Assembly: GCA_963726745.1 (NCBI GenBank)
Contig: CAVSDR010000006.1
Location: 32,001-96,000 of the forward strand
Origin: an uncultured Verrucomicrobiae bacterium
GTDB taxonomy: Bacteria; Verrucomicrobiota; Verrucomicrobiia; Chthoniobacterales; UBA10450
Direction: 5' to 3'
Length of the DNA: 64,000 bases
Shown here piece by piece: positions 3,128 to 62,135 of this stretch. Each line of letters opens with the position of its first letter. The stretch's first letter is position 1. The notes under the pieces were generated by a model, which saw only the letters and a program-made list of their open reading frames with translations, searched no databases and was not told the origin of the DNA. A program made the position numbers and the translations under genes.

Positions 3128-4522
3128 TTACTGCGACTGCTTCTGCAGCCGCGGATCCGTCTCGGCAATAATGATGCTGACCGCGTGCTGATTGAAACCC
3201 TTGAAGCCGCCCCTCCGCTGCAGGTTTTCGAGATGGCTGCCGATCGCACCATTCTTCACGAACTCCTCAAACTGCGCGTCTGTGATCGAACCGGCTGCCT
3301 GCAATCGCTCGGCACGCGCGCGCCGCACCGGCCAGCGCTCACCTTCAGTGAACGCCTGTTTCAGAAACGGAAAATCGGAGAAAGGCTTCATCGTGTTGAT
3401 GCCCTCCTTGGTGAGTTGTTCGCGCAGGAGCGCGTGGTCAAAGCGGCACTCGAGGTGATGCATCCCCGCCTCGAGGAAGCTCTCGCCGTGCAGGCCGCAC
3501 CAGAGCCCGATCGTCCCGACTTTCGGCTGCGCCGGAAGCGCGCGGCGCGAGAAGTCGATGTCTACTTCGTCGGGGTTCAGGTCGACGTCGTTGAAGATGA
3601 TGATCCCCTCGACCGGCTGCTCGACGATCTGCGCGCCCCAGCCCGCCTGCGCCCCGGCGTAGTAACGCTCGCGGCGATGAAAGCCGAGCAGCTCCCAGGC
3701 CTTGATCAGGTCGACAAAACATTCGCGCGAAGAGCGGAAGGTGTGGTGATCGTGATTCGCCCAGCCGAGGCCTAACGAGTCCTGCCGGCGCTTCTGCTCG
3801 GTGCCGGCGCGATTGCGCTTTTGCCAGAAGCGGCGCTCCTCCTCAAAGACGAGGTGGCAGGCTAAATCCTGGCCCACCAGCTGGACCATGCGCTCGATCC
3901 GCGCGAGGCCGTCTTTCATCCCCGCCAGGTCGTCGTCCCACTGGCGCGGCCGTGCCTGCCAAAGCTCCCGCGCGGCAAAATAGCCGACCAGATCCGGCTC
4001 GCTCGGGACGTAACCGCGATAGGCGCGGCGCTCGATCACTTCGAAGCGGGCGCCGTTCTCCTCCGCGAAAAGCATTTTCCGGAAACGCGAAAACGGCGCG
4101 CCTTCGATCGCGTGGGTGACGCCATGCACACCGGCGAAAATCGCCAGGTCTTCCACACGAATGCCAAGCCCTAGCGGGAATTTCGCGTTCGTCTGCGCGA
4201 TCAAGACTCGCGGCAGCATCGCCTCCGGATGCCAAAGCTGCCGCTGCCCCTCGGGCGCGTCGGCCAGCGGATCCTCCGTGTAACCCGTCGCGCGCAGCGC
4301 CGCTTCGTCCGACGCCGGGAGCACGAGGTAATCGGTCCAGTCGAGCAGAAGCGTGCCGGTCTCGTCGCGCATCCGCCGGGCCATGTTGGCCGCGGCCGCG
4401 TTTTGCTGGGTGAAGGCGTCGATCTTCTCCAGGAGGAAGTTCTCCGCGTCGTAACACAGCGGCCATTCGAAACGGGTTTCCGCGGCGTCCTGCTTTTGAG
4501 GGTCGAGGGTGGCGATGCTCAT
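3128..4522 (-). CDS. VOC-superfamily Fe(II) dioxygenase-like protein (HPPD/HglS-like), putative 2-oxo-acid dioxygenase/decarboxylase
   Basis: Motifs DHHTFR, GMHHLECR, FLKQAFT and HLENLQRRGGFKGF parallel the HPPD/DUF1338 His-His-Glu motifs; clustered with lat and pcd. Confidence 0.6.
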   Translation of the reverse strand: MSIATLDPQKQDAAETRFEWPLCYDAENFLLEKIDAFTQQNAAAANMARRMRDETGTLLLDWTDYLVLPASDEAALRATGYTEDPLADAPEGQRQLWHPEAMLPRVLIAQTNAKFPLGLGIRVEDLAIFAGVHGVTHAIEGAPFSRFRKMLFAEENGARFEVIERRAYRGYVPSEPDLVGYFAARELWQARPRQWDDDLAGMKDGLARIERMVQLVGQDLACHLVFEEERRFWQKRNRAGTEQKRRQDSLGLGWANHDHHTFRSSRECFVDLIKAWELLGFHRRERYYAGAQAGWGAQIVEQPVEGIIIFNDVDLNPDEVDIDFSRRALPAQPKVGTIGLWCGLHGESFLEAGMHHLECRFDHALLREQLTKEGINTMKPFSDFPFLKQAFTEGERWPVRRARAERLQAAGSITDAQFEEFVKNGAIGSHLENLQRRGGFKGFNQHAVSIIIAETDPRLQKQSQ

Positions 4523-4555
4523 ACGTTCTTAATTTGGCTTAACCGACAAAACTTG

Positions 4556-6196
4556 TCATTTCCCGCTCTCGGGCGAACCGGGCCGGCGCGCGCTTTCGCT
4601 CTCCGCGCGCAGCGCATGGTATTCGCTTTGCGGCTGCCACGAAGGCCAGGCCGCGGAGTTCGCCAGTTCATGGCCGAGCGCGAAGGCCACGCCAGCTTCC
4701 TGCGCGGTGCCGGCAAAGGTCCACTTCGAATCAAATTGATCGCACGGCTGGTGATAGCAGTCCCGGTTGTAAGCCGCGACGACCGCCTGCCCTGCGGCCG
4801 ACCCACCGTCGACCAGGTCGCGCCCGGCGCGGAAAGCGAGCGCAGGCACGCCGCGCTTCGCGAAGGGGAAATGATCCGAGCGAAAATACCAGCCGGCTTC
4901 CGGGTTCGGCTCCGGCGTAACCTTCAAGCCCTGCGCTTTGGCCACGCGGCCGAAGTCATCCTCCAAGGTCGTCCGCCCGCCGCCGATCAACTCCACGTCG
5001 CGCGCCGCCGGCAGGACCACGTGCGGGTCGAGATTGATCACCGCGACCGTCGTCGCCAGCGGATAAAGCGGATGCGCCGCGTAAAACTCCGAGCCGAGCA
5101 AGCCCTTCTCCTCCGCGGTCCAGGCCGCGAAAACCACCGTCCGTTCCGGCGCCTTCCCGGCCTTGAAAGCGCGCGCTATTTCCAGCACTTCCGCGGTGCC
5201 GGTGGCATTATCGACCGCGCCGTTGCGGATTGCGTCGCCGGTTTTGTCGGGGCCGTTCGTCCCGTTTGCGTCCCAATGCGCACCGTAAAGAATCGTCTCG
5301 TTAGGCCGCGCGCTCCCGGTAATTTTAGCCAGCACATTGCGGCTCTCGAAGGGCGTCGCCTTGAGCTCGCCGTGGGCTGAAAGTGCTGCCTCTTTTAGCG
5401 GAAACGCGCGAAAGCCAGGGTCGCGGGCCTGCTTCTTCAGTTCCGGCAAGCTCTGGCCGGTGGCCTGCAGAAGTTTCTCCGTCACATCGCCCGCGAGCCA
5501 GCCGCTGAGCTTCAACTCCGAAGGCTTGAGCGGCGCCAGCACCATCGCCGGGAGCGCGTCGCCGCTTGCGAGCTGTGAGAAGGGATAACTCGCGGCCGCT
5601 TCCTCGTGGAGCACGAGCACACCGGCCGCGCCGGCCTTTGCCGCGGCCTCGAACTTCACCCCCACGCGGCCTGCATACGCCATCCGTCGTCCCTCGAAAC
5701 CAAGATCTTTCCCCGCCTCGAAATCCGGATCGTTCGCCAGCACGACTGCGATTTTGCCGGCCATCTCCACGCCTTCGTAGGCGTTCCAGCCGCGATCGAC
5801 CACGCCGTAACCGGCGAAGACCAGCGGCGCATCCTGGAGCGAGGTCTCGCCGGGATTGCGCAGGCCGAGAGTCGCGTTTTTCCCCAGCTCGAGGGCGATC
5901 TCCTTGCCGCCCACCGTCAAGGTGAGACGCGCACCCGGTTGCCGATCGAGCCGGACCAGCGGCACCTGCTGGAACCAGCCCCCTGCTTCGCCGCCGGGTT
6001 GCAATCCCGCTTTCTCGAAAACGCTGGCTAAATATTCCGTGGTCTTTCGGTCTCCCGCTTCGCCCGGGCCCCGCCCGGCAAATTCATCGGAAGCGAGCTG
6101 CTGGACGTCGGCCTTGATCCGCTCCGCGGAGATCGGGCCAGCCGCGAGGCCACGCGCGAGCGTCAGACTAAGTGCGATGGCGAAAAAAAATCTCAC
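4556..6196 (-). CDS. Secreted M28 family metallopeptidase with PA domain
   Basis: GTG start overlaps the pcd stop (GTGA); signal peptide; GAHWD, NGAVDNATG, AEEKGLLGS, RSDHFPF, YHQPCD. Confidence 0.88.
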   Translation of the reverse strand: MRFFFAIALSLTLARGLAAGPISAERIKADVQQLASDEFAGRGPGEAGDRKTTEYLASVFEKAGLQPGGEAGGWFQQVPLVRLDRQPGARLTLTVGGKEIALELGKNATLGLRNPGETSLQDAPLVFAGYGVVDRGWNAYEGVEMAGKIAVVLANDPDFEAGKDLGFEGRRMAYAGRVGVKFEAAAKAGAAGVLVLHEEAAASYPFSQLASGDALPAMVLAPLKPSELKLSGWLAGDVTEKLLQATGQSLPELKKQARDPGFRAFPLKEAALSAHGELKATPFESRNVLAKITGSARPNETILYGAHWDANGTNGPDKTGDAIRNGAVDNATGTAEVLEIARAFKAGKAPERTVVFAAWTAEEKGLLGSEFYAAHPLYPLATTVAVINLDPHVVLPAARDVELIGGGRTTLEDDFGRVAKAQGLKVTPEPNPEAGWYFRSDHFPFAKRGVPALAFRAGRDLVDGGSAAGQAVVAAYNRDCYHQPCDQFDSKWTFAGTAQEAGVAFALGHELANSAAWPSWQPQSEYHALRAESESARRPGSPESGK

Positions 6197-7732
6197 GCGG
6201 TCGCGCTCCCCGTGGCCGGCGCTCCGAACTCGATCCCCTGCGCCAGCGGCAGTTCGGTCGAGAAATTGATCGTGTTCGTCTGGCGCCGCATATAGGCCTT
6301 CCAGGAATCGCTCCCGCTTTCGCGGCCGCCGCCGGTCTGTTTTTCGCCGCCAAAAGCGCCGCCAATTTCCGCGCCGCTCGTCCCGGCGTTGACGTTCGCG
6401 ATTCCGCAATCGCTCCCGACCGCGCTCACAAAGCGCTCCGCTTCGCGCATGTCGTTGGTAAAAATGGCCGAACTCAGGCCCTGCGGCACGTTGTTGTGCA
6501 GCGCGATCGCTTCGTCGAAGTCGCGATACGTCATCAGGTAAAGCAGCGGGCCAAAGGTCTCGTGCTGCACGATCTTCGCGTCCGCGGGAATGGTCGCGAG
6601 GCAAGGCGTCATGAAACAGCCGCCGGCGTTCTCCAGCTTTTCGCCGCCGAACAAAATCTCGCCGCCCTGTTCCTTCGCCTGCGCGATCGAGCGCTGCACG
6701 TTCTCGACCGCTTCCGGGTCGATCAGCGGACCGACCAGCGTCGAACGCTCGAGCGGATTGCCGATGCGCATCGACCGGTAAGCCGCAAGCAACTGCGCGC
6801 GCAGCTTGTCGGCGACCGACTCGTGCACGATCACCCGCCGCGTGGAGGTGCAACGCTGGCCCGCAGTGCCGACCGCGCCGAAGAAGATCGCCCGCGCCGC
6901 CATTTCCAGGTCGGCCGATTGAGAAACAACCAGCGCATTGTTGCCGCCGAGTTCGAGAATGCTTTTGCCCAGGCGTCCATGCACCGTCTTCGCGACGTCA
7001 AAGCCCATCCGCGTCGAGCCGGTCGCGGAGACCAAGCGGGATGCGTGCATCCGCCGCCATCTGCTGCCCAAGGCTCGGCCCGTCGCCGATGACTAACGAG
7101 AAGATGGCCGGATCAGCTCCGGTCGCGCGACACACGCGCTCGGCGATCTTGATTACCGCTATCGCGGTCAGCGGCGTTTTTTCCGACGGCTTCCAGATGG
7201 TCGAGTCGCCGCAGACAGCCGCGAGCGCCGCGTTCCACGACCAGACGGCTACGGGGAAATTAAACGCCGAGATGATGCCGATGATCCCGAGCGGATGCCA
7301 CTGCTCCATCAAGCGATGGCTCGGCCGTTCCGACTGAATCGTGAGGCCGTAAAGCATGCGCGACTGGCCAACCGCGAAGTCGCAGATGTCGATCATCTCC
7401 TGCACTTCGCCTTCGCCTTCGGCCACGATCTTGCCCATCTCCATGGTCACGAGCTGGCCCAGGTCGCTCTTCGCTTCGCGCAGGGCGTTGCCGAGCTGCC
7501 GGACGGTTTCGCCGCGCACCGGCGCCGGGGTCTTGCGCCACTTCAGGAAAGCTTCCTGCGCGCGCGTGACTGTGCGCTCGTAGTCTTCCGGCGAAGCCGT
7601 GCGCACGCGCGCTAACAAGTTGCCGTCTATCGGCGAGCGCTTCTCCAGGAGCGCGCCGCCGCCACGCCATTCCCCGTCGAAAGCGCCGTGATTTTCCTCG
7701 GCCAGGCCGAGCCGCTTGAGAATGTCTTGCAT
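6193..7732 (-). CDS. pcd: ALDH7-type aldehyde dehydrogenase (L-piperideine-6-carboxylate/aminoadipate-semialdehyde dehydrogenase); apparent frameshift near 7040
   Basis: GEGEVQEMIDICDFAVG, SAFNFPVAVWSWN, LELGGNNA, GTAGQRCT, GAEIGGAFGGEKQTGGGRESGSDSWKAY; directly downstream of lat. Confidence 0.88.
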
Positions 7733-7737
7733 GGTCG

Positions 7738-9141
7738 TTAGGCCCGCAGGCGCCGGCATTCGTCCCGCAAGAGGTGAAGGCCCTCGTCCGCCACTTCCAC
7801 CGGCAGGTCGAGCGCCGGGCGGAAGCGAATCGCGCGCTCGCCCGACTTCAAGACCAGCAATCCGCGGTCGAAGAGATTTTTCCAAACCGTGTCGCGCGTG
7901 GCCGCATCCGGCAGGTCGAAGGCAATCCAGAGACCGCGCCCGCGCACCGCCGTCATCTGCGGGCATTCCGCCGCGATCGCGCGCAGTCCATCGAGGATGT
8001 GCGCGCCGACTTTCGCGGAGTTCGCGACCAGGTTCTCGCGCTCGATGATCCGCAGGTAATGCTTCGAGCGCACCATGTCGGTGAAGTTGCCGCCCCAGGT
8101 GGAGTTCAAGCGGCTCGGCAAGCGAAAGGCATTGTCCTTCACCTCGTCGAGCTTCGGTCCAGCCATCACGCCGCAGACCTGCGACTTCTTGCCGAAGCAA
8201 AGCAGGTCGGGCAGGACGTCAAAGTGCTGGCAGCACCACGTCTTGCCGGTAGTCCCGAGGCCGGTCTGGACCTCGTCAAAGATCAGCAGCATCTCGTTTT
8301 CGTCGCAAATCTGGCGGAGCTTGCGCAGCCATTCGCCGCGGAAATGGTTGTCGCCGCCTTCGCCCTGGATCGGTTCGATGATGATCGCGGCTACGTCGAC
8401 GCCGCGCTCCGCGATCACCTGGCGAATCTCCGCCTCCGCTTGCTCCTCGCGCGCGATCACGTCCGCCTCGCGCTCCTTTTCGCCTAACGAGAAATCGATC
8501 TTCGGGTTCGAGACCCGCGGCCAGTCGAACTTGGCGAAGAGCGCGACCTTGTTCGGGTCCGTATTCGTCAAGCTCATGGTGTAGCCGCTGCGGCCGTGGA
8601 AAGCCTGGCGGAAATGCAGGATCTCGGTCCCACGTTCGCCCTGGCCGGCCGCCATGTTTTTGCGCACCTTCCAATCCATCGCGGCCTTGAGCGCATTCTC
8701 GATCGCGAGCGCGCCGCCTTCGATGAAGAGGTAACGCTCCAGCGGCGGGCACCCGGCGACGCGCGCGAGTGTTTCCACAAAGTCGGCGTATTGCTCGGTG
8801 TAAACGTCGGAGTTGGCGATCTTGGTGCGCGCCGCCCGGGCCATCTCTTCCTGCACTTCCGGCTGGTCGAAGTAGGGATGATTGAAGCCCACCGGGATCG
8901 AGCCGAAGAACCCGTAAAAGTCGATCAATTGCTTGCCCGTGACCGCATTGAAGATGCGGGACCCACGGCTGCGCTCGAGGTCGAAGACGATCTTGAAGCC
9001 GTCCATCAGGACGTGCTCCTCGAGTTTCTTCAGCGCGCTGGCAGCGGCGCGAAGGACGTCATCGGAATGGGCAGGGCTCGTAACGGAGCGGCGCGAAGCA
9101 GAAGTGCCCGGCGCCTCCGTGAGCACGGGAGGCATACTCAT
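7738..9141 (-). CDS. lat: L-lysine 6-transaminase (class III PLP aminotransferase)
   Basis: EGGALAIENALKAAMDWK, AFHGRSGYTMSLTNT, EPIQGEGGD, FDEVQTG, FGKK, SRLNSTWGG. Confidence 0.92.
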   Translation of the reverse strand: MSMPPVLTEAPGTSASRRSVTSPAHSDDVLRAAASALKKLEEHVLMDGFKIVFDLERSRGSRIFNAVTGKQLIDFYGFFGSIPVGFNHPYFDQPEVQEEMARAARTKIANSDVYTEQYADFVETLARVAGCPPLERYLFIEGGALAIENALKAAMDWKVRKNMAAGQGERGTEILHFRQAFHGRSGYTMSLTNTDPNKVALFAKFDWPRVSNPKIDFSLGEKEREADVIAREEQAEAEIRQVIAERGVDVAAIIIEPIQGEGGDNHFRGEWLRKLRQICDENEMLLIFDEVQTGLGTTGKTWCCQHFDVLPDLLCFGKKSQVCGVMAGPKLDEVKDNAFRLPSRLNSTWGGNFTDMVRSKHYLRIIERENLVANSAKVGAHILDGLRAIAAECPQMTAVRGRGLWIAFDLPDAATRDTVWKNLFDRGLLVLKSGERAIRFRPALDLPVEVADEGLHLLRDECRRLRA

Positions 9142-9198
9142 CCGCAGAGGTTAGCTTTAGCGCTCTGTTTGGTCAACCGGAGCCCGGTCTAACGAAAG

Positions 9199-11130
9199 CT
9201 AAACAATTCCGCTTGCGAGCAAATCGTGCTTCCCGCCCATGAGTTCCTGGGTGAGCTGGTAGCCACGCTGGTCCGCATTCTTCGAGGTGCCGGCGAAGTG
9301 CTGGTCGATCCGCGTTTTGGCCGAGGCGCAGAAGTAATTAGCCAGCGAGATGATTTCTGCGGCCGGCTTGCCCTGGTCGATCAAATGCTGCGCGTAGGAG
9401 CAGGTGGCGCTAATCGCAAAAATCTCCGTGGCCACGCCGACGAAGCGGGAAAGGAGAAGCTGTTCGCGATCGAGTTTCGGACCGAAGCGCATCATCGCGT
9501 GGAAGAGACCACGCGCGAGTTTCTTGCTCATGGTCGCGCCGTATTGGATATGCGGTCGCAGGTCCGCATGCAGCTTGCTCAGGTCGCCGGTTTTCGCGGG
9601 CGTGAACTGCTTCGGATACCAGCGCGAATAGAACGAGCCGCTGCCGAACATCGCCTTGATCCGCGTGGCCATCGGCACCTGCGTGTTGAAGATCGCGCCG
9701 CCGACCTTGAGGTGCGGATCGAGCGCTTCGCGCGCAATGAAGAGACGCATGATTTCGCTCGAGCCCTCGAAGATCATGTTGATGCGGCAATCGCGCAGGA
9801 AACGCTCGACCGCGATCGGTTCCTCGCCGCGACCGGCGAGCGATTGCGCGGTTTCGTAACCGCGGCCGCCGCGCACCTGCATCGCTTCGTCGGCGATCCG
9901 CCAGGTCATCTCCGTGGCCCACATTTTGCACATCGCGGTCTCGATGCGGAGGTCGCTCGATTTCCGGTCGACCAAAGCACTCGTTAGGAAAGTGATCGCC
10001 TCCATCGCGAAGGTGTAGCCGGCCATCTCCGCAACCTTGCCGGCGATCGCGGAATGCTTGCCGATCGGCGCGCCCCATTGCACGCGCTCGCTGGCCCACT
10101 TGCGGCAGATTTGCACAAGGCGCTTCGAGAGGCCGACGCAGGCCGCGGGAATCGTTAGCCGGCCGGTGTTCAAAGTCGTTAGGGCGACCTTCAAGCCCTG
10201 GCCTTCCTTCGCGATCAGATTCTCACGCGGGACGCGCACGTCGGTGAATTTGACGATGCCGTTATAGAGCGCGCGCAGCCCCATGAAGTGGCAGCGATAG
10301 GTGATCTCCACGCCCGGATAATCGATGTCGACGATGAAAGCGCTGATCTGTTTCCGCTCCTTGCCGTTGACCATCTTTGGCGGCGTCTTGGCCATGACCA
10401 CGAGCACGCCGGCCTTGATCAAGTTGGTGCACCACAGCTTCTCGCCATTGAGGATCCAAGCGGTGCCGTCTTCGCTCAGCTTCGCTTCCAGGCTCATGTT
10501 CGCCGGGTCGGAACCGGCGTTCATTTCGGTCAAAGCGAACGCGGAGATTTCCTTGCGCGCGACCCGCGGGAGATACTTCGCCTTCTGCTCTTCGGTTCCA
10601 AAAATCAGGAGCGGCTGCGGCACGCCGATCGACTGATGCGCGGAGACGAGCGCGGTCAGGTTCGCGTCCCAGCTGCCGAGCAGCATCGCCGCGCGGCCGT
10701 AGTTCACCTGCGAAAGGCCGAGGCCGCCGTATTGCTTCGGCACCTTGATCGCAAACGCGCCCATCGCGAAGAGCTCGTCGATGTTCTTCTGCGGGATCTC
10801 GCCGGTGCGATCGATCTCGTCCGCGTCGACGTTGTCGTGCAGGTATTGCTTCAGCTCCGCGAGGAACGCTTCGCCCGCCGACTTGTCTTCCGCGCTCTGC
10901 TCCGGCCACGGGAAGATGCGGTCGAAATCATAACGACCGATGAACAAGTTGCTGGCAAAACTGCCGCGTTCATCGAGCGGATCGCGCGAAGATTCCGCGA
11001 GGTCGAGCGCAGCGGCCTTCCCGGCCGACATCTTCGAGGTGTCAATCACCGGCGCGGCGGATTTCTCCACCGGCTGGGCGCTGGTCTCGGCTTTGATCTG
11101 TTCAGGTGGCGCTTCGAGCGGTGTCTTCAT
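9199..11130 (-). CDS. Acyl-CoA dehydrogenase (VLCAD/ACAD9-like)
   Basis: AFALTE..AGSD, LNGEKLWCTN, QVRGGRGYE, RDCRINMIFEGSSEI. Confidence 0.92.
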   Translation of the reverse strand: MKTPLEAPPEQIKAETSAQPVEKSAAPVIDTSKMSAGKAAALDLAESSRDPLDERGSFASNLFIGRYDFDRIFPWPEQSAEDKSAGEAFLAELKQYLHDNVDADEIDRTGEIPQKNIDELFAMGAFAIKVPKQYGGLGLSQVNYGRAAMLLGSWDANLTALVSAHQSIGVPQPLLIFGTEEQKAKYLPRVARKEISAFALTEMNAGSDPANMSLEAKLSEDGTAWILNGEKLWCTNLIKAGVLVVMAKTPPKMVNGKERKQISAFIVDIDYPGVEITYRCHFMGLRALYNGIVKFTDVRVPRENLIAKEGQGLKVALTTLNTGRLTIPAACVGLSKRLVQICRKWASERVQWGAPIGKHSAIAGKVAEMAGYTFAMEAITFLTSALVDRKSSDLRIETAMCKMWATEMTWRIADEAMQVRGGRGYETAQSLAGRGEEPIAVERFLRDCRINMIFEGSSEIMRLFIAREALDPHLKVGGAIFNTQVPMATRIKAMFGSGSFYSRWYPKQFTPAKTGDLSKLHADLRPHIQYGATMSKKLARGLFHAMMRFGPKLDREQLLLSRFVGVATEIFAISATCSYAQHLIDQGKPAAEIISLANYFCASAKTRIDQHFAGTSKNADQRGYQLTQELMGGKHDLLASGIV

Positions 11131-13172
11131 AAAATTTCGTTCCCTCCTGGGAGTGCTTCCGTAATAGATCGCACGGCGCGAACTTAGCACCTGCACGAGA
11201 ATGCAGCCCGTCCATTTCCGTCACGATCGTTTTGGGCCCGCGATGGTCCGCATACCGCAGCGGCCCGCCGCGGAAGGGCGCGAAGCCCGTCCCCATCATC
11301 ATTCCAAAATCGGCGTCGGCTGGCGTCGCGATGACTCTTTCCTCGAGGCAGCGCGCGGCTTCGTTGACCATCAGGAAAATGAGCCGGTCGGCTAAATTCT
11401 CCGCGGCGAAATTCTCGCCGGTGGCCTCGCGCCATTCCTCGAGCGCCTCGTTCGGCGCCTGGCTTTTGCCTTCGTATTTGTAGAAGCCCGAGCCGCTCTT
11501 CCGGCCGAGCATTTTCGCCTCCAGCATCTTCCGCAGGATCGGCGCGGCTTCGTCCCGCCGTCCGTAGGCTTTCTCGAGCGTGTCGGCAATGTCGACCGTA
11601 ATATCGACACCGATCTCGTCGATCAAACGCAGCGGGCCCATCGGCATGCCCCAGGCGACCAAAGCGCTGTCTATTTCCTCCGCGGAAACGCCGGCCTGGA
11701 AGAGCTCCGCCGCGTCGAGCAGATACGGGAAAAGGACGCGATTGACCAGGAAGCCGGGGCTGTCCTGCACCACCACCGGCAGCTTCCCGATCTGCCGGGC
11801 GAAGGCGAGCGCGCGCTCGGTCGTCTCCGGCTCGGTCTGCTGGCCGACGACGACCTCGATCAATTTCATGCGGCTGACGGGATTGAAAAAATGGAGGCCG
11901 ATGACGCTGCCGGGCCGGTCGGTCGTGGCCGCGAGCTCGCTGATCGGCAGCGCGGAGGTATTGGTCGCAAGGACGGCAGACGGACCGGTCTGCTTGGTCA
12001 AATTGGCGAAGATCTGTTTCTTGATCGCGAGCTTCTCGGAAGCCGCCTCGACCACCACCTGCACATCGCGCAAGCCATCCTGCACGGTCGAGGCGACAAT
12101 CCGCGCGCGCCCTTCCTTCGCCTTCTCGTCGCTCATCAGGCCACGCTTGACCGCGTCGCCGTAAGGTCTTCTCGATATTCTTCAGGCCGCGATCGAGCTG
12201 CTCCTCGGAGACATCGCGCAAGATCACCGAAACACCGCGTGCGCTGAGCCATTGGGCAATGCCTGAGCCCATGACGCCGGCGCCGATGACGGCCGCGTGC
12301 GCCACCTTTTCCGCGGGCGCCTTCGAGCTGCCTTTTTTGAAACGATCGCCGAGGAAGAAATTGCGGATGAGATTCTGCGTGGTCTCGGTTTCGCCGAGCT
12401 CGACGATCGCATCGAGCTCCATGCCTAACGACTCTTCCTCCGACTTGCCGGAGCGGATGATCTCGAGTGCGCGTTGCGGCGCGGCGTTGTGGTCCTGCTT
12501 CAGGCGGAAATCGCCGGAAGCTGCCGGCGGATTCGCGACGGGACGCTTGCCTTTCGCCAACATTTTCCGGGCGGCGTCGAGCAAGCCGTCGCGCGGCACC
12601 ACTTCATCCACCAAGCCGAGCCGCAACGCGTCCTCCGCGGTGTGTAATTTACCCTTCAAGATCACTTCCGCGGCCGCATCCACGCCGATCAAGCGCGGCA
12701 AACGGGTGGCTCCGCCCCAGGCCGGCACCAGGCCGAGCGTGGTCTCCGGCAAACCAATGCGTGTCGCGGGCTCACTCGTGGCGACGCGGTAATCGCACGC
12801 GAGCGTGATCTCGTAGCCGCCGCCGGCGCAGGCGCCGTGAATCGCGGCGACCGTCGGAACCTTGAGCGCGGCCAGGCGATTGAACTGTTTTTGCCCCTCG
12901 GCAATAAAGGCGCGCAGCTCGCCGGTTTGCGCCTGGCGCAAGAGCGTCTGCAGGTCGGCCCCGGCGATGAAAATCGACTTCTTCGCGGAGACGACGATTA
13001 CGCCTTTCAAGTTGCTGTCTGTTTCCAGCGCGTCGAGGTGCTCGCGCAAGCTCGCGATCGTCTTCGCGTCGAAGATATTCGCGCCGGATTCCGGCCGGTC
13101 GAAAGTCAGCAGGCAGATGCCGTCGTCGCCCATTTCGCGGCGGATCATCGAAGCAGTCTCAGTGGCGCTCAT
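11102..13172 (-). CDS. fadJ: Multifunctional enoyl-CoA hydratase/3-hydroxyacyl-CoA dehydrogenase; apparent frameshift near 12160
   Basis: Crotonase motifs FIAGAD, GACAGGGYE, GLPE; GAGVMGSG; ATNTSAL, GLHFFNP, PGFLVNR in the second frame. Confidence 0.88.
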
Positions 13173-13297: not shown

Positions 13298-14695
13298 ATG
13301 GTCGGCCGTTTACTCCAACCCGAAATCCAGAGCCTGATCGACGCGCGGAATTTCACCGCGCTGCGCGAGCTTTTCGAGGATTGGCCGCCGGCGGACGTGG
13401 CCGAGGTCATCCTCGACATGCCGGAGAGCGAGCAGGTGATCATCTTCCGCGTGCTCCCGCACGAGCTCGCAGCCGACGTCTTCGAGTATCTCGACGTGGA
13501 CGCGCAACAGCAGTTGCTCAAGGCGATGGCGCACGAGCAGGTCGTCGGAATTCTCAATGAGATGTCGCCGGACGATCGCACGGCGTTGCTCGAGGAAATG
13601 CCGAGTGCGGCCGCGCGGCAGCTCATTCGTTTGCTCACTCCGGACGAGCGCCGGATTGCAACCGCGCTGCTTGGTTATCCAGAGAGCAGCGTCGGTCGTC
13701 TGATGACGCCGGACTTCATCGCCGCGCATGATGACTGGAGCGTGCGCGAGGTGCTCGATTTCGTGCGCGAGCATGGGCAAGACTCCGAGACGCTGAACGT
13801 GATCTACGTGGTCGATGAGCGCGGGAAATTAATCGACGACCTGCGCATCCGCGAAATCCTGGTCAAGCCGCTGGATGCGAAAATGGCCGACATCCGCGAC
13901 CAGAATTTCGTCGCGCTGAATGTGAACGACTCGCAGGAGGACGCGCTGAATATTTTCCGGAAATACGATCGCACCGCGCTCCCGGTGGTCGACGGCACCG
14001 GGGTGCTCGTGGGCATCGTGACCACGGACGACATGCTCGACGTGGCCGAGGAAGAAGCCACCGAGGACATCCAGAAATTCGGCGGCATGGAAGCGCTGGA
14101 CGAGCCCTACATGCGCATTCCGCTCTGGAAGATGGTGCGCAAGCGGGCCGGATGGCTGGTGATTTTGTTCCTCGGCGAAATGCTCACCGCGACCGCGATG
14201 GCGAGCTACCAGGACGAGATCGCCAAGGCCGTCGTCCTGGCGCTGTTCCTTCCGCTGATCATCTCCAGCGGCGGCAACTCCGGCTCGCAGGCCTCGACCT
14301 TGATCATCCGCGCGATGGCCCTGGGGGAAGTGACGCTGAAAGATTGGTGGCGGGTGATGAGCCGGGAACTGCAGGCCGGACTCTCGTTAGGCGGCATCCT
14401 CGGGACGATCGGCGCGCTGCGCGTAGCCCTCTGGTCCTACGTGGGCGAGCATTATTTTCATCGCGAACTCTATGGCCAGCACTGGCCGCTGGTCGCGGCC
14501 ACGGTGGGCGTGTCGCTCGTGGGCGTGGTCCTCTGGGGCTCGCTCTCCGGCTCGATGTTACCGTTTGTTCTGCGCCGCGTGGGCGCGGACCCGGCCACGT
14601 CCTCGGCGCCGTTCGTGGCCACGCTGGTCGACGTGACCGGCTTGATCATCTACTTCTCGATCGCGCTCCTGATCATGCGCGGCGCGATGCTTTGA
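13298..14695 (+). CDS. mgtE: Magnesium transporter MgtE
   Basis: N-domain, CBS pair, SSGGNSGSQ, DPATSSAPFVATLVDVTG. Confidence 0.95.
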   Translation: MVGRLLQPEIQSLIDARNFTALRELFEDWPPADVAEVILDMPESEQVIIFRVLPHELAADVFEYLDVDAQQQLLKAMAHEQVVGILNEMSPDDRTALLEEMPSAAARQLIRLLTPDERRIATALLGYPESSVGRLMTPDFIAAHDDWSVREVLDFVREHGQDSETLNVIYVVDERGKLIDDLRIREILVKPLDAKMADIRDQNFVALNVNDSQEDALNIFRKYDRTALPVVDGTGVLVGIVTTDDMLDVAEEEATEDIQKFGGMEALDEPYMRIPLWKMVRKRAGWLVILFLGEMLTATAMASYQDEIAKAVVLALFLPLIISSGGNSGSQASTLIIRAMALGEVTLKDWWRVMSRELQAGLSLGGILGTIGALRVALWSYVGEHYFHRELYGQHWPLVAATVGVSLVGVVLWGSLSGSMLPFVLRRVGADPATSSAPFVATLVDVTGLIIYFSIALLIMRGAML

Positions 14696-14699
14696 GTCG

Positions 14700-20765: not shown

Positions 20766-21159
20766 GCCGCGCGGCTGGCGCAATCCCTGGGTGCAGGTCG
20801 CCGTCAGCACTTTGTGCGTGACCGTCTCTGAGCTCTTCCAAAAGCGCGGGGCCGACGCCACGATCCACCTTTCGCCCGCGTGGGGCTGGACCGGCCTAAC
20901 GACTCTGGCCTCGCCGCTTGTCTGGCTCGGAATGCTCTTCACCATCCTCAGCTTTCTCACCTGGCTTTACGCGCTGAAATACCTCCCGCTCTCGGTCGCC
21001 TTTCCGGCTTCGCAGGCGGTCCACGTGCTCATCCCGATCAGCAGCTGGCTTGTCCTTGGCGAAATGATCACGCCGCTCCGCTGGGCCGGGATCACGCTGG
21101 TGCTTCTCGGGCTCGCGCTGGTCGCGCGCCCGGTCGCGGAGTTGGAGGAAAAACTGTGA
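20749..21159 (+). CDS. Small DMT/EamA-family membrane protein (ArnE/F-like)
   Basis: About 136 aa with four hydrophobic segments; LPLSVAFP, LGEMITPLRWAGI. Confidence 0.8.
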   Translation: MPTNSKPRGWRNPWVQVAVSTLCVTVSELFQKRGADATIHLSPAWGWTGLTTLASPLVWLGMLFTILSFLTWLYALKYLPLSVAFPASQAVHVLIPISSWLVLGEMITPLRWAGITLVLLGLALVARPVAELEEKL

Positions 21160-45845: not shown

Positions 45846-45863
45846 GGAGGCAAGGCCCGGCGC

Positions 45864-49783: not shown

Positions 49784-50029
49784 ATTTGGTTTCGTTAGGC
49801 TAAGGCGGTTTTCGCGGGCCGATTGAGCGCGCTGGCTAATTCCCCGGAAGACTCCGTTCAATGCAGGGCGAAGCTGCCGCGTTCTCCGCTCCTGCGTTTT
49901 GGACCACGGCGGCTTGGCGACTGGGTGGCGCCGGGTTGGGCGCGCAAATTTCAGCCAGGAAACGCGGCCGCGCGGAGAGAATCATGGCGCGGTGTTTAGC
50001 TACGCCCGGCAGGCCTGACAAGAGAAAAG

Positions 50030-54060: not shown

Positions 54061-56821
54061 ATGCTTCGCCGTTTCGCTTTCCTCTTCCTCGCTCCGTTAG
54101 TCTTGCACGCGCAGGAAACCCCGGCCCCGCCATCGCCGCCGCCGATCCAGCCAGAAACGCGTGCCCCGCAGCCCGCGCCTCCGGTATTCACCGAGGTGCA
54201 ATTCAAGAGTCTTAAGGCGCGCAGCATTGGTCCGGCGGTCATGGGGGGACGCGTCTCCGAGATTGCGATCGACCCGCGCAACCCGGCAATTTTCTTTGTT
54301 GGCTTCGCCACTGGCGGCATCTTCAAAACCGGCGACAACGGCGCGACCTTCGACCCGATTTTTGATAAAGAGACGACACTTTCAATCGGCGCGCTCGGCC
54401 TTTCCCCTTCCGATTCCGACATCCTTTACGCCGGCACCGGCGAGGCGAACGACCGCAATTCCTCCGGTTGGGGCAACGGCGTCTACCGCTCCGGCGACGG
54501 CGGCGGCACCTGGCAGAATGTCGGCTTAAAAGAGAGCCGCGCGATCGGCCGGCATCGTGGTGCATCCGAAGGATCCGAACACGGTTTATGTGGCCGCAGC
54601 CGGCAATCTCTGGGTCGATGGCGGGGAGCGCGGGCTCTTTAAAACCACCGACGGCGGCAAAACCTGGAAGCCGATCCTGCAAGCAGCCGGGTCGGCCGCC
54701 GCGCGCACCGGTGCGGGCGACGTGGTGCTCGATCCGGCGAATCCCGAGATCGTTTACGCCACGCTTTACGCGCGCCAGCGCACACCATGGAACTTCACCT
54801 ATGGCACCGCGCTCACCGAGGGCCAGGACGCAGGCGGCATCTTCAAGAGCACCAACGGTGGCGCCGCCTGGAAGAAGCTCGCCAACGGCCTTCCGACGCA
54901 GACCGGCCGCATCGGCTTGTCCGTTTCCGCGAGCAACCCGCGGGTGGTCATGGCGGTAGTCCAGAGCGACGAAGGCGGCGCGAATGATTTCCGCAACATC
55001 CAGAGCAAAGCCGGCGGCGTTTTCCGTTCCGAAGATGGCGGCGAGAAATGGACCCGCGTGAGCGACATCAATCCGCGCCCATTTTATTTCAGCCAAATCC
55101 GGATCGATCCTGCGAACGACCAGCGTGTTTACCTGCTGGGCTATGCGCTCCTGGTTTCGGATGACGGCGGGAAAAACTTCCGGGAAGACTTAAGCGACAA
55201 GATTCACCCGGATTGCCATGCGCTCGCGATCCAGGCAGGCAGCGCGCCCGCACCCAAGCCGGTGAAGCCGGAGGACAAGGACAAGCCGGTGAAGCCGATC
55301 AACTCCACCCGGCTCTTGTTAGGCACCGATGGCGGCGTCTACCAAAGCTACGCCGCGGGCAAAGGCTGGGAGCACTTGGCAAACATCCCGGCGGGCCAGT
55401 TTTACCGGATATCCCTCGACGATTCGCAGCCGTTTTACCGGGTGGCCGGCGGCTTGCAGGATAACTGCAACTGGGTTGGCCCGACCGGCGTTCAAAGCAA
55501 GGACGGCATCGTGAACAATGATTGGACCAACCTCGGCGGCGGCGATGGCTTCTACGTCCTCTTCGACCAGCAAGACAAGGATACCTTCTACGCTGAGAGC
55601 CAACAGGGTGCGGTCCACCGAATGAATACGCGCACCGGCGAGGTGCGCGAGCTCCGCCCGGCGCCGCAGGAGGGCCAGCCGGAATTCCGCTTCCATTGGA
55701 ATTCGCCCCTGGTCCCGAGCAAACACAAACCAGGCGTGATCTACCTCGGCGGCAATCAGGTTTTCCGCCTGACCAACCGCGCGGAAAACTACGACGTGAT
55801 CAGTCCGGACCTGACCCGGAACGAACCTGGAAAGACGAACGCCACCGGCAGTGGCGCGGAGAACTACGGCGTGGTCTACTCGTTAGCCGAGTCGCCGGTG
55901 AAAGCCGGCCTGCTCTGGGCGGGCACGGACGACGGGCGTCTGTGGGTGACCGAGGATGACGGGGGCAAATGGACTGAGCTGACCCAAAACCTGCCGGAAA
56001 CCGTGCGTGGCCAGTGGGTCGTGCGCATCGAGCCGGGGCACCAGGACCCGAAGGTGGCCTACGTGGCGCTTAATGCCTACCGGAGCGGCGACGACCATCC
56101 AATGCTTGTGCGCACCAGCGACGGCGGCGCCACCTGGCAAAGCGTCGTCGGCGATGGCTTGCCGGCTTATGCGCCGGTGGAGGTGATTCGCGAGGACCCG
56201 GTCAATCCGCGCCTGCTTTACACCGGGACACACTTCGGCCTTTTCATGTCGCTCGATGGCGGCGGCAAGTGGATGCGCTTCGGCGATCTGCCCGCGGTTC
56301 GCGTGGACGATCTCCAGATTCATCCGCGCACGAGCGACCTCGTGATTGCGACGCATGGCCGCAGCCTGCACGTGATCGACGACACCCGACCGCTTCGCGA
56401 CCTGACACCGGAAATCGCAGCGCAGCCCGCCTACCTTTTCCCGGTGGCTCCGGTGCGGGGCGACTACCAGCTCCCGGGTTGGGTCGAATGGGCTGGCAAA
56501 AGCGAATTCCGCGGGAAGAATCCGCCGGACGGCGCGGTCTTCAACATCTGGGTCAAGGAATTCACCGGCGACGAGTTGAAGATCTCGATCAGCAACGCTG
56601 CCGGGACTCCCGTGGCTACTTTGAAAGCCACCCCTGCGCAGGGCCTGACTCGTCTTACCTGGGACCTTTTACCGACGAAGGATGTGCTCACGCAATACGG
56701 CGGCATCGACGCCAAGCGGCTGGTGCCCGGTGGCGATTACACCGCTGAGTTAAGCTTCGGCCAAACCAAGCAGAAGCAGACCTTCAAAGTGAATATTGCT
56801 GAGGGGATTAAGACTCGTTAG
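54061..56821 (+). CDS. Secreted VPS10/sortilin-like BNR-repeat beta-propeller protein; apparent frameshift near 54550
   Basis: Signal peptide; RSIGPA..GGR, repeated S.DGG..W Asp-boxes, GGLQDN, GGGDGF, ATHGRS. Confidence 0.85.
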
Positions 56822-56830
56822 CCTGCGCGC

Positions 56831-57514
56831 ATGTCTCGCCGCTCCCTGCGTTTTGGCTGCGCCATCCTCGCCGGCAGCCTGCTCGCGGCCGGCGCGGCGC
56901 GCGCCACCACCAAAGGCCTAAGCCAGATCGTGACCCCGGACCTGCAGTCGCCGGGCGACTTTTCGCTCAGCGCTCAGGTGCAAAGCGCGCGCATCGCCAA
57001 TCCCTATCAACTGCAGGCCGAACTCGGCCTGGTCGACTGGGCGGAGGTCGCGGTCTTCCAGGGCTTCAAGCCGAACGAGCTTATCTTCGGCGCGGAGTTC
57101 GGGATCCTGCGGAAGGAACCGGTGCTCCTGGCCGCGGGCTTCATCAACTGGTCGCCGCAGCGCGGCGTCGATCCGCAGCCGTTTCTCGAAGCCGGCTATT
57201 ATACCGAGCATCATAAATTCATCCTCGGCGCGATCCACGCTGATGATCGCAACCAGGCGATCCTCGGCTATGCCTGGGACTACAACAAAACCTGGCGCGC
57301 CCAGATCGATTTCCAGAGCGGCTCCGGCAACTCCGTCACTGTCGGTTTTACCTGCAATGTCACCCGCGACCTGCAGATCAATCCGGCGCTCTACCTAACG
57401 AACGATTCGCCGCACCGCGTCCTCGGTTACTTTGTCGCCACCTACACTTTCCACGCCTGGAATCCGCATCGCGGCCAGCCGGAGAGCGGCGGCGCGCAAC
57501 GCCCCTCGCCTTAG
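56831..57514 (+). CDS. Hypothetical exported protein, possibly an outer-membrane beta-barrel
   Basis: Signal peptide ending ARA; alternating aromatic/hydrophobic beta-strand pattern. Confidence 0.6.
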   Translation: MSRRSLRFGCAILAGSLLAAGAARATTKGLSQIVTPDLQSPGDFSLSAQVQSARIANPYQLQAELGLVDWAEVAVFQGFKPNELIFGAEFGILRKEPVLLAAGFINWSPQRGVDPQPFLEAGYYTEHHKFILGAIHADDRNQAILGYAWDYNKTWRAQIDFQSGSGNSVTVGFTCNVTRDLQINPALYLTNDSPHRVLGYFVATYTFHAWNPHRGQPESGGAQRPSP

Positions 57515-60113: not shown

Positions 60114-60660
60114 CTACGACTCGTTTACCTACAACCTCGCGCAATACTTTGGCGAGCTGGGGTGCGAACTGCTCGTTAGGCGAAATGATGCCATCACGCT
60201 CGACGAGATCGAGTCGTTAGGCCCGCGGCACATCTGCATTTCGCCCGGCCCGGGCACGCCGGCGGCGGCGGGCGTGAGCCAGGGGGTGATCGAGCGCTTC
60301 GGCCGGCGCACCCCGGTGCTGGGGGTTTGCCTGGGACATCAATGCATCGGCGAAGTCTTTGGCGGCAAGGTGGTGCGCGCGCCGGAGTTGGTGCATGGCA
60401 AGTCGTCCATCGTGCGCCACCGAGGCGATGCGCTTTTCGCCGGGGTGCCCTCGCCTTTCCGCGCCGGGCGTTACCATTCGCTCATCGTGGAGCGGGAAAG
60501 CTTCCCGTCGTGCCTCGAAGAAACGGCCACGAGCGAAACAGACGGCGAGATCATGGCCTTGCGGCACCGGGAGCACCCGATCTTCGGCGTGCAATTTCAT
60601 CCGGAATCGATCCTGACCGCGGACGGCAAAACCATCCTGCGGAACTTCCTCGCGGTTTAG
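60094..60660 (+). CDS. trpG: Anthranilate/aminodeoxychorismate synthase component II
   Basis: [33 protein letters not shown]. Confidence 0.93.
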
Positions 60661-60668
60661 CCAGCAAG

Positions 60669-62135
60669 ATGACGCTCCAGCCTTCGCTCGAAGAATTCCG
60701 CCGCCTCGCGCACGATGGGAATGTCATCCCGGTCTACGCCGAGTTCGTGGCCGATCACGAGACCCCGGTCTCGGCCTTCGCCAAACTGGACGACGGCGGG
60801 CATAGCTTCCTCTTCGAATCGACCGAAAAGAATGATGTCTCCGGGCGCTTCTCCTTTGTCGGCACCGCGCCGCGCACGGTCATCCGGGCGCGCGGGCGCG
60901 AGGTCACGCTGGACGGCGAGACTTACACCGCCGCCGGCGACCCGCTCGACGAAGTGCGGCGGCTGATGGCGCGCTACCGGCCGGTGGCGCTCCCGGCGGT
61001 GCGCTTCACCGGCGGCGCGGTCGGCTTTCTCGGTTACGAGGCGATCCACCATTTCGAGCCAACGGTGCCGCTGGCGGAGCGCGACGAGCTCGGCCTGCCG
61101 GAGATGCTCTTCATGATCACGAGCAATCTCCTGGTCTTCGATCACCGCCTGCGCTCGCTCAAGATCGTGGTGAACGCGTTCCTCGAGGATGGGGCCGCCG
61201 AGGAAGTTTACGCCGCGGCAGCGGCGACAATCGCGGAAATAGCCGGCAAGTTGTCCCAGCCTTCGCAGTTGCCGCTCCTGGCGCCGGCGGAGGGCGCGCC
61301 GCCGGAAACGCGGAGCAATTTTAGCCAGCAAGCTTTCGAAGCCGCGGTGGCGCGCGCGCAGGAATCCATCCGCGCGGGCGATGTCTTCCAGGTCGTCTTG
61401 TCGCAGCGTTTCGAGGCGGATTACCGCGGGACGGCGCTCGAGCTTTACCGCTGCCTCCGGTTTGTGAATCCGTCGCCCTACATGTTTTGCCTGCGCTTTG
61501 GCGGCGAGTTTTCGCTCGTCGGCAGCTCGCCGGAGTTGCACGTGCGCCTAACGAATGGTCTCGCGGAGATCCGCCCGATCGCCGGCACGCGCCCGCGCGG
61601 CGCCAGCCCCGCGGAAGACGAGGCCAATGCGGCTGAGCTTCTGGCGGACCCGAAGGAATGTGCCGAGCACACAATGCTGGTGGACCTGGCCCGGAACGAC
61701 ATCGGCCGCGTGGCGGAGTTCGGCAGCGTGCAGGTGAACGAGCTGATGAACATCGAGCGCTACAGCCACGTGATGCACCTCGTCTCCAATGTCACCGGAC
61801 GGCTGCGCGCGGGTTTGGATGGCTTCGATTTGGTGCGCGCGACCTTTCCGGCGGGCACGGTCTCGGGCGCGCCAAAAGTGCGGGCGATGCAGCTAATCGC
61901 CGAGCTCGAGGGGACGCGACGCGGATGCTACGCGGGGGCGATCGGCTACTTCGGCTTCGATGGAAAGGTCGACTCCTGCATCGCCTTGCGCTCGGCGTTG
62001 TTGAAAGACGGGAAGGCCTACTTCCAAGCCGGCGCCGGCATCGTGGCCGATTCCGTGCCGGCCGTGGAATTCCAGGAAACCGTGAGCAAAGCGGGCGCAG
62101 TCCGGCGCGCGCTCGCGATGGCGGCGCGCACCTAG
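60669..62135 (+). CDS. trpE: Anthranilate synthase component I
   Basis: FLFES, GDVFQVVLSQ, NPSPYM, GSSPE, PIAGTR, EHTMLVDLARND, GTVSGAPK, QAGAGIVADS. Confidence 0.93.
   Translation: MTLQPSLEEFRRLAHDGNVIPVYAEFVADHETPVSAFAKLDDGGHSFLFESTEKNDVSGRFSFVGTAPRTVIRARGREVTLDGETYTAAGDPLDEVRRLMARYRPVALPAVRFTGGAVGFLGYEAIHHFEPTVPLAERDELGLPEMLFMITSNLLVFDHRLRSLKIVVNAFLEDGAAEEVYAAAAATIAEIAGKLSQPSQLPLLAPAEGAPPETRSNFSQQAFEAAVARAQESIRAGDVFQVVLSQRFEADYRGTALELYRCLRFVNPSPYMFCLRFGGEFSLVGSSPELHVRLTNGLAEIRPIAGTRPRGASPAEDEANAAELLADPKECAEHTMLVDLARNDIGRVAEFGSVQVNELMNIERYSHVMHLVSNVTGRLRAGLDGFDLVRATFPAGTVSGAPKVRAMQLIAELEGTRRGCYAGAIGYFGFDGKVDSCIALRSALLKDGKAYFQAGAGIVADSVPAVEFQETVSKAGAVRRALAMAART

Follow-up and report, generated by a model that had tools for sequence, protein, structure and literature searches.

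A hyper-abundant, asymmetric DNA word in an uncultured Chthoniobacterales family as a candidate DNA uptake sequence

Introduction

Only two families, both proteobacterial, are known to recognise self-DNA by short sequence motifs, namely the Neisseriaceae and the Pasteurellaceae (10.1101/2025.10.24.684340). The DNA uptake sequence (DUS) of Neisseriaceae, where ComP is the receptor, is family-wide and combines a constant core with varying flanks (Frye et al. 2013, PMC3630211; Berry et al. 2013, PMC3868556). The uptake signal sequence (USS) of Pasteurellaceae has a 9-bp non-palindromic core and a weaker flank with A/T-preferring positions on its 3' side. A recent prediction names the minor pilin ComN as its receptor (10.1101/2025.06.16.659825). 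The properties listed for true uptake sequences are those of a hyper-abundant 9- to 10-mer that occurs in either orientation, has the range of a family, lies at poorly conserved positions, is relatively evenly spread and is under-represented in coding and in newly acquired DNA (PMC2817400, PMC7811141; for this literature see also PMC1939737). Here we describe the non-palindromic 9-mer GCCTAACGA, which is strongly over-represented in a stretch of 64,000 nucleotides (the window, C6:32001-96000 of assembly G000) from an uncultured bacterium of the order Chthoniobacterales, as well as in the rest of its genome and in its family. We propose, with a probability of about 0.5, that this word enhances DNA uptake in an uncultured soil family and that it spread by uptake bias and recombination.

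Like the USS, the word combines a non-palindromic core of 9 bp with a weaker flank on one side, in which some positions prefer A or T, occurs in either orientation, lies mostly in genes and in all stop-free frames, and about doubles the tripeptides that it encodes (PMC2817400, PMC7811141). Poorly conserved positions, a relatively even spread and a family-level range are also common to both (PMC2817400, PMC7811141). The two sequences are unrelated and belong to different phyla, the favoured frame of the present word contains a rare codon, and uptake bias is only predicted for the word described here. The average spacing of the USS corresponds to about 1 copy per kb (PMC7811141), compared with 0.39 per kb here and up to 1.36 per kb in relatives. 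As with the DUS, a constant core with varying flanks extends through a whole family, the word is depleted in DNA that was likely imported, and a related word exists, here in one sister-family genome. In contrast to the DUS, no homologue of ComP was found in G000, the inverted terminator pairs that are frequent in Neisseria are represented by only 5 pairs within 100 bp, and the sparse relatives sampled do not carry a replacement word.

Other systems of over-represented words also have to be compared. HIP1 (highly iterated palindrome 1) of cyanobacteria is, like the present word, hyper-abundant in genes, found in all frames, clade-wide and uneven in abundance, and its function is unproven. HIP1 is a palindrome tied to methyltransferases, whereas GCCTAACGA is asymmetric and is not tracked by the conserved N6/N4 methyltransferase of the family. 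Chi and the FtsK-orienting polar sequences (KOPS) are over-represented asymmetric words as well, but they are strand-polarised and read by RecBCD/AddAB or FtsK, while neither polarity of the word nor a RecC was found in G000. Repetitive extragenic palindromic (REP) sequences and miniature inverted-repeat transposable elements (MITEs) are longer, usually palindromic, intergenic and gained by insertion, in contrast to a word with 71% of its copies inside genes.

Results

Abundance of the word and shape of the site

The assembly G000 comprises 3,406,779 bp in 7 contigs and is 94.7% complete. Its window contains ordinary housekeeping and metabolic genes. The motif was noticed in an earlier, sequence-only reading of the window, and all 26 starts listed there for GCCTAACGA are exact matches, 14 on the plus and 12 on the minus strand (Table 1). 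The expected number is 0.32, and dinucleotide-preserving shuffles reached a maximum of 3. For the shorter core CTAACGA, at least 45 copies had been claimed from a manual count; we found 46, against 3.22 expected. The five CTAACAA variants reported at the same time are all present (1.15 expected), with the coordinates of two of them corrected by 1-2 bases in Table 1. A GC content of about 66% had been assumed for the window. The measured value is 63-64%, which does not affect the conclusion.

In the complete G000 assembly GCCTAACGA occurs 1312 times (0.385 copies per kb), 681 times on the plus and 631 times on the minus strand, whereas Markov models of orders 1-3 predict about 16-20 copies. The excess is approximately 70-fold. 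The 7-mer CTAACGA is present in 2025 copies, and GCCTAACGAG is with 820 copies the commonest 10-mer of the genome. All 21 one-letter variants of the core together amount to about 200 copies, compared with the 820 perfect 10-mers. CTAACGA is thus nearly invariant, and the sole well-tolerated change, counted among all one-letter variants of the 10-mer, leads to CTAACAA (93 copies). Softer positions of the 10-mer are the outer G, the C and the final G.

A logo of all G000 copies revealed neither longer conserved flanks nor a palindrome, only a short 3' flank with G at +9, no G at +10, no T at +12 and A or T at +13. Since these preferences are identical in all reading-frame classes and in the intergenic copies, they are a property of the DNA site, which is asymmetric and about 14 bp long. 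For this genus it can be written approximately as GCCTAACGA-G-(not G)-N-(not T)-W.

Coding context

Genes of G000 were called with a simple codon-score finder, which yielded 2652 genes covering 84% of the genome and misses genes shorter than 240 nt. Of the copies, 925 (71%) lie inside these genes, 247 between genes and 140 across a gene border. Coding DNA has 0.32 copies per kb and is less densely occupied than intergenic DNA with 0.45 per kb. Within genes the copies are distributed over all four stop-free frames (420, 87, 218 and 200 copies). The window, for which copies on both strands and in several reading frames had been described, reflects this distribution with 16 copies within genes in four frames, 4 across a gene end and 6 between genes.

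According to the sequence-only reading, protein sequence does not account for the copies inside genes. This agrees with a codon-aware null model: 30 shuffles of synonymous codons within each gene gave 14.5 sense and 6.8 antisense copies, compared with 422 and 507 observed. The rare leucine codons that had been pointed out in the window are forced genome-wide. TTA and CTA make up 2.9% and 1.5% of the leucine codons, and 420 of the 2876 TTA codons and 219 of the 1516 CTA codons are located inside the word. Through the rare TTA, 420 of the 732 Ser-Leu-Gly (SLG) tripeptides are encoded as TCGTTAGGC.

Relative to reversed controls, several of the encoded tripeptides are enriched, namely SLG (1.80), PNE (1.87), PND (1.94) and LTN (1.94), and others weakly or not at all (LTS 1.21, VRQ 1.28, VRR 1.18, VRL 1.00 and LTT 0.86). 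In true uptake sequences the encoded tripeptides are about doubled (Findlay and Redfield 2009, PMC2817400).

Read in the remaining two frames, the word contains TAA or TAG and provides the stop codon of 159 genes (89 TAA and 70 TAG). Stop-codon usage in this genome of 64% GC is nearly even in our gene calls, with 934 TAG, 886 TGA and 831 TAA.

Distribution along the genome

Copies are found on all contigs at roughly 20 per 50 kb and follow no replichore pattern. Close pairs are depleted. Gaps of at most 100 bp number 11 against 50 expected, and gaps of at most 200 bp number 33 against 98. An even distribution is expected under drive (PMC7811141).

A depletion of the word in genomic islands had been put forward as a check and was indeed observed. 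The two longest word-free stretches of G000, 35 and 24 kb in length (Table 1), are surface-polysaccharide gene clusters, which encode glycosyltransferases, DegT aminotransferases, a Wzz-like protein, an ABC exporter and an exosortase. Horizontal exchange is common for such gene sets. The word is depleted in DNA that was likely imported.

Phylogenetic range and dialects

The word is not a peculiarity of one assembly, which the sequence-only reading had named as a finding that would speak against it. It is family-wide and absent from sister families. All 18 congeners examined are enriched, with 138-2291 copies compared with 37-118 copies of the reversed word, and within this one genus the density ranges from 43 (G002) to 709 copies per Mb. 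Another 120 genomes of the family, representing 36 genera, all contain the word, and most of them are enriched, with a maximum of 4336 copies in 3.2 Mb (1.36 per kb) in G079. By a hand tally, 17 of the 120 remain below twice their own control, 7 of these in genus g19; the sole sampled member of g36 (G053, 13 copies) and both members of g46 are also below this limit. One genome from each of 12 other families of the order holds 1-19 copies, at or below the control. Genomes flagged as unpublished (G001, G008, G032, G036, G043 and G155) enter only these range tallies and one of the eleven loci of the 10-kb alignment described below; none of the conclusions hinges on them.

Public metagenome-assembled genomes (MAGs) give the same picture. 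Close relatives with an HflX identity of at least 76% contain 139 copies in 235 kb from 36 loci, and the control word 6 copies, whereas no copy was present in 291 kb from 44 loci of more distant Chthoniobacterales and other Verrucomicrobiota. The named public relatives belong to the Verrucomicrobiota, order Chthoniobacterales, and are all metagenome-assembled. AV80, one of the labels carried by these MAGs, is presumably a genus placeholder of GTDB, from a family that would also hold the abundant soil genus Ca. Udaeobacter.

The flanks of the core vary within the family. The 5' GC is kept in most genera and lost in g19. The 3' preference is sharper in the congener G147 than in G000 and absent from a mix of other genera, which keep the 5' GC. 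Unbiased k-mer enrichment detected no replacement word in the sparse relatives G002 (same genus, 400 kb) and G053 (g36, 200 kb). In G089 (g19, 200 kb) the 7-mer core is four-fold enriched without the 5' GC, and no alternative hyper-abundant word was detected there.

In the sister-family genome G022 a related word, CTAACATC, occurs in 356 copies in 3.5 Mb compared with 67 copies of the control. These copies lie on both strands and are visibly clustered, for example in C2:50838-65104. Among four outgroup families, from each of which 100 kb were sampled, G022 alone showed such a related word, and it is absent from the other four outgroup genomes tested.

Three further observations were made in these genomes. 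In G022:C7:94047-96651 the 9-mer GCCTAACGA forms same-strand runs with steps of about 500 bp. G002 (L032-L051) and G089 (L157-L166) have in common a repeat with words resembling TCGGGATGAC and GAGGGATCCC, at 12-18 copies per 200-400 kb where fewer than 1.5 are expected; this element may be a REP- or MITE-like repeat unrelated to GCCTAACGA. In G024, from another family (L195-L199), the words TAGCCTGAT, TAGGGCGAA and TGGGCTACT are mildly over-represented (9-12 per 100 kb, 0.4-0.5 expected).

Gain, loss and sharing of sites

When 10 kb of the window were aligned with 11 congeners, the exact word was kept in 11 of 40 aligned comparisons, and 8 of these 11 concern a single site, that at 23103. Elsewhere in this alignment the relatives carry ordinary sequence with 1-8 differences. 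A larger alignment to G000 covered two congeners, the dense G147 (400 kb; 0.68 copies per kb) and the sparse G002 (380 kb), both at a mean identity of about 74-75%. In G147, 39 of 69 G000 sites (57%) have the word at the same column, compared with 9.5% for any 9 aligned columns. In G002 this holds for 2 of 96 sites (2%), compared with 12% for any 9 aligned columns. Judged from these alignments, the word is therefore actively maintained in some species and erased faster than average sequence in others.

Non-shared sites differ on average at 3-5 of the 9 positions, and gaps were found at 22 of 144 of them in the comparison with G147 and at 9 of 98 in that with G002. Since most non-shared sites are thus ungapped and separated by a few substitutions, copies arise and vanish by substitution. 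The flanks of sites present only in G000 are less conserved than random positions (72.5% vs 74.8%, p=0.04, and 68.4% vs 73.0%, p=0.0015). At 49 of 61 such sites in coding DNA the encoded peptide differs from that of G002, as in SLG compared with TLG, ALG or AIG.

Competence and pilus genes

A search for ComEC and type IV pilus genes had been recommended together with the uptake hypothesis. G000 encodes ComEC as well as PilC-like, PilM/N-like and pilin-like proteins, and in addition DprA, three secretins, ten ATPases of the T2SSE type and a 95-residue HHH_3 protein that resembles ComEA. The pilin-like proteins, about nine in number, include major and minor forms as well as minor-pilin clusters.

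One such cluster (G000:C3:1029969-1034820; L181:3966-8820) consists of three pilin-like genes, a gene for 114 residues and a gene for an 813-residue protein, which is hyper-variable across the family and has no Pfam match. At another locus (G000:C5:155144-158683; L183) three near-identical small pilin genes (131-134 residues) are found among genes for tetratricopeptide-repeat proteins and large membrane proteins.

Discussion

A proposed role in DNA uptake

The sequence-only reading had likened the motif to uptake sequences. This likeness now extends to the enrichment of tripeptides, the poorly conserved positions, the depletion in likely imported DNA and the even short-range spread. Since the word has the properties published for uptake sequences, we rank an uptake-enhancing sequence first among the possible explanations.

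From the observed statistics, DNA-level conservation, range, distribution and machinery we infer a bias in uptake, a reader and a molecular drive, which might act as follows. A surface-exposed or periplasmic part of the type IV pilus or competence machine would bind double-stranded DNA that contains the word, whichever way the word is oriented. DNA fragments from the family itself would then preferentially be imported through the secretin and ComEC and be recombined into the chromosome with the help of DprA and RecA. Substitutions that create or improve a copy would be over-transmitted, which amounts to a molecular drive, so that copies would accumulate wherever they are tolerated, i.e. in the four stop-free frames, at stop codons and in intergenic DNA.

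Several observations weigh against this proposal. The full-text literature searched contains no record of transformation in this lineage. No ComP was found in G000, where the best match to ComP_DUS (PF16732) reached 21.9 bits (cut-off 27.3) and covered only the N-terminal pilin helix, and ComN was not searched for. The receptor may be a protein that is not homologous to ComP. Of 121 family genomes, 115 have ComEC irrespective of word density, including G053 and G063, which are classed as word-free. As competence genes are widespread in bacteria, their presence is permissive only. A 222-residue pilin-like protein occurs in 120 of the 121 genomes, dense and sparse ones including G053 and G063, and the 813-residue protein of the minor-pilin cluster is patchy, with full-length versions in 10 relatives, among them G053. 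Across the 121 genomes, none of the four proteins compared with word density (ComEC, the 222-residue and 813-residue proteins and the N6/N4 methyltransferase) tracks it.

The favoured frame also uses a rare codon, whereas published uptake sequences favour frames with preferred codons (PMC2817400). Inverted pairs, which are typical of DUS terminators, number only 5 within 100 bp among 1305 gaps in G000. For the same reason an arm of a terminator hairpin was rejected as an explanation of the word. Finally, HIP1 shows that a word can be hyper-abundant and independent of frame without necessarily being an uptake signal.

Alternative explanations

Unlikely, although the best of the alternatives, is a binding site for a chromosomal protein specific to the family, for instance a loader, a nucleoid-associated protein or an intracellularly read self-marker, kept by selection for chromosome organisation or for discrimination of self from non-self. 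Such a protein would account for an exact, asymmetric site of about 14 bp, for close pairs that are depleted as if spaced, for the conservation of 57% of positions between two dense species and for the fairly uniform density along all contigs. However, selection would have to act on each of 1300-4300 sites and be strong enough to override rare codons and amino-acid changes, the latter seen in 49 of 61 peptides compared with G002. Congeners and whole genera do without the word (43 copies per Mb in G002, 13 copies in G053), which fits a dispensable process better than chromosome architecture, and a site essential for chromosome organisation would hardly be lost repeatedly among close relatives. 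The sites moreover favour less conserved DNA and avoid likely imported clusters, as in passive accumulation. A candidate protein was not found, and none was tested.

We consider it still less probable that the word results from a modification or repair bias of the HIP1 kind, in which a methyltransferase or a repair enzyme would convert near-matches by biased mismatch correction, without any uptake. The word contains a CpG, and its commonest variant, CTAACAA, corresponds to a change of CpG to CpA. Word density varies widely among close relatives, as such a bias would allow, and DNA methyltransferases are present in G000. One of them, an N6/N4 enzyme (G000:C3:981068-982039; L205:2068-3042), is conserved with 58-78% identity in 114 of the 121 family genomes. 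It is, however, also found in the word-free G053 and G063 and hence does not track the word; judged from its range, it behaves like a vertically inherited orphan enzyme. Another, a C5 methyltransferase, lies within a word-free stretch of 15 kb at a contig end and therefore looks recently acquired. A Vsr-type endonuclease was not found in the 94.7%-complete G000. A methyltransferase would not usually recognise a contiguous asymmetric site of 9-14 bp, and a bias that acts on each site independently gives no reason to expect close pairs to be four- to five-fold too rare, which argues against a purely mutational or repair bias.

Very improbable is a recombination hotspot like Chi or a polar guide like KOPS, either of them recognised by an enzyme that translocates along DNA. 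Chi words are octamers that are likewise asymmetric and over-represented, at a similar density. Strict replichore polarity, which the sequence-only reading had named as a sign of such elements, was tested on local GC skew: the G-rich strand carries 638 of the 1312 copies (48.6%, p=0.33), compared with up to 67% for the most skewed 8-mers of G000. Judged by local skew, polarity of the KOPS or Chi type is excluded, though the weak GC skew limits the power of this test. In the 94.7%-complete G000 no RecC was found, and the single PDDEXK_1 match lies in a frame of 470 residues, which is not the size of AddB. Both the missing polarity and the missing RecC speak against Chi, and an approximately 70-fold enrichment against codon usage is far beyond that of Chi.

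Remnants of a tiny mobile repeat or an assembly artefact, suggested by copy number alone, are of negligible probability: a MITE or REP remnant is ruled out by the lack of a conserved flank or palindrome, the in-frame copies in intact housekeeping genes and the mostly ungapped alignment to relatives, and an artefact is contradicted by the presence of the word in all of more than 140 family assemblies searched, with enrichment in most, and in public MAGs with different isolate labels.

Implications

The sequence-only reading knew of no such signal in this lineage. Likewise, neither the word nor uptake sequences of Verrucomicrobia were found described in the full-text literature searched, with most subscription journals outside its coverage. 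As a plain string the word occurs in 130 papers, and the 20 of these that were considered seemed to concern other subjects than bacterial motifs. If the word is an uptake-enhancing sequence, it might be the first self-DNA uptake signal outside the Proteobacteria. At odds that we put slightly short of even, a Chthoniobacterales family would mark its DNA with GCCTAACGA and re-import it via the type IV pilus by means of a receptor unrelated to ComP, and G022 would use CTAACATC. Natural transformation biased towards kin would in that case constitute a major route of gene flow among soil Verrucomicrobia that has so far gone unseen.

A third, unrelated word whose genomic footprints are alike, in another phylum and in organisms so far represented by soil metagenomes alone, makes it possible to test whether sequence-specific uptake is a rare oddity or instead a strategy of general use. 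The word is a concrete bait for its reader, and the span of 43-709 copies per Mb within one genus is a natural experiment on the gain and loss of such words. In practice, the word could label DNA for transformation attempts in this hard-to-grow group. It also marks native as opposed to imported DNA and can help to assign metagenomic contigs to the family. Should the reader be something other than an uptake receptor, the word would define a genome-wide, non-polar and asymmetric signal without a described counterpart.

Features of the window and further words

Table 1. Copies of the 9-mer, its core and the CTAACAA variant in the window (window coordinates), followed by the longest word-free stretches of G000 (contig coordinates). 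Residues encoded by the word are given in parentheses after the frame; IPP, isopentenyl pyrophosphate.
Feature	Coordinates	Strand	Context
full 9-mer GCCTAACGA	3770..3778	+	antisense in gene 3128-4522(-); TCG TTA GGC = SLG
full 9-mer	5298..5306	-	intergenic
full 9-mer	7735..7743	-	across end of aminotransferase gene 7738-9141(-)
full 9-mer	8482..8490	+	antisense frame 0 (SLG), gene 7738-9141(-)
full 9-mer	12423..12431	+	intergenic
full 9-mer	14384..14392	-	antisense frame 0 (SLG), MgtE gene 13184-14695(+)
full 9-mer	19648..19656	-	intergenic
full 9-mer	20894..20902	+	sense frame 2 (RPND), gene 20880-21500(+); word kept in 1/6 aligned relatives
full 9-mer	21800..21808	+	antisense frame 1 (FVRQ), gene 21489-22532(-); word kept in 2/9 aligned relatives
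full 9-mer	23103..23111	-	sense frame 1 (RLTK), HhH-GPD base-excision glycosylase gene 22891-23571(-); identical in 8/11 congeners, ~72% DNA identity
full 9-mer	25564..25572	-	sense frame 1 (RLTN), IPP transferase gene 25241-26059(-); kept in 0/9 aligned relatives
full 9-mer	26066..26074	+	intergenic
full 9-mer	28662..28670	+	sense frame 2 (LPNE), class I E/Q tRNA synthetase gene 27121-28794(+)
full 9-mer	31537..31545	-	sense frame 1 (GLTS), gene 30152-31651(-)
full 9-mer	33362..33370	+	intergenic
full 9-mer	37719..37727	+	across end of AcrB-family gene 34569-37724(+); TAA of the word at the stop
full 9-mer	39135..39143	+	antisense frame 0 (SLG), glycosyltransferase gene 38982-40286(-)
full 9-mer	42218..42226	-	sense frame 1 (GLTS), symporter gene 41568-43250(-)
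full 9-mer	43371..43379	+	antisense frame 0 (SLG), gene 43359-45845(-)
full 9-mer	44835..44843	+	antisense frame 0 (SLG), gene 43359-45845(-)
full 9-mer	45862..45870	+	across end of gene 45864-46745(-)
full 9-mer	49792..49800	-	intergenic
full 9-mer	51075..51083	-	sense frame 2 (RPNE), histidine kinase gene 50030-51604(-)
full 9-mer	60173..60181	-	antisense frame 0 (SLG), DAHP-synthase-family gene 59438-60220(+)
full 9-mer	60214..60222	-	across end of gene 59438-60220(+); direct repeat 41 bp from copy at 60173; one of 11 genome pairs within 100 bp
full 9-mer	61546..61554	+	sense frame 1 (RLTN), anthranilate-synthase-like gene 60327-62135(+)
core-only CTAACGA, other 5' flank	7093..7099	+	
core-only CTAACGA	9189..9195	+	
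core-only CTAACGA	9981..9987	-	
core-only CTAACGA	10152..10158	-	
core-only CTAACGA	10176..10182	-	
core-only CTAACGA	14697..14703	-	
core-only CTAACGA	17002..17008	+	
core-only CTAACGA	17872..17878	-	
core-only CTAACGA	19404..19410	-	
core-only CTAACGA	27859..27865	-	
core-only CTAACGA	28645..28651	-	inverted, 19 bp from full copy at 28662
core-only CTAACGA	32061..32067	-	
core-only CTAACGA	34618..34624	-	
core-only CTAACGA	39362..39368	+	
core-only CTAACGA	43519..43525	-	
core-only CTAACGA	43558..43564	-	
core-only CTAACGA	46402..46408	-	
core-only CTAACGA	55880..55886	-	
core-only CTAACGA	56815..56821	-	
core-only CTAACGA	57395..57401	+	
variant CTAACAA	7612..7618	+	commonest one-letter variant genome-wide
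variant CTAACAA	24411..24417	-	
variant CTAACAA	40615..40621	+	
variant CTAACAA	53978..53984	-	
variant CTAACAA	55316..55322	-	
longest word-free stretch	C7:60030-95400		GC 0.593
longest word-free stretch	C6:413728-437792		GC 0.600

On the minus strand of the window, positions 26145-26819 encode a protein of 224 residues with a eukaryote-type RNA-recognition motif (RRM_1), beside miaA-like and hflX-like genes. In G000 as a whole the tandem hexamer GCCAAC is conspicuous, since 12- to 14-mers of it occur about 140 times. A second over-represented word was found in G000:C3:1-400000, where GGCTAATT is present 55 times (3.7 expected), GGCTAATTT 34 times (1.0 expected) and GGCTATTT 47 times (3.8 expected). 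This word may be a promoter-like element.

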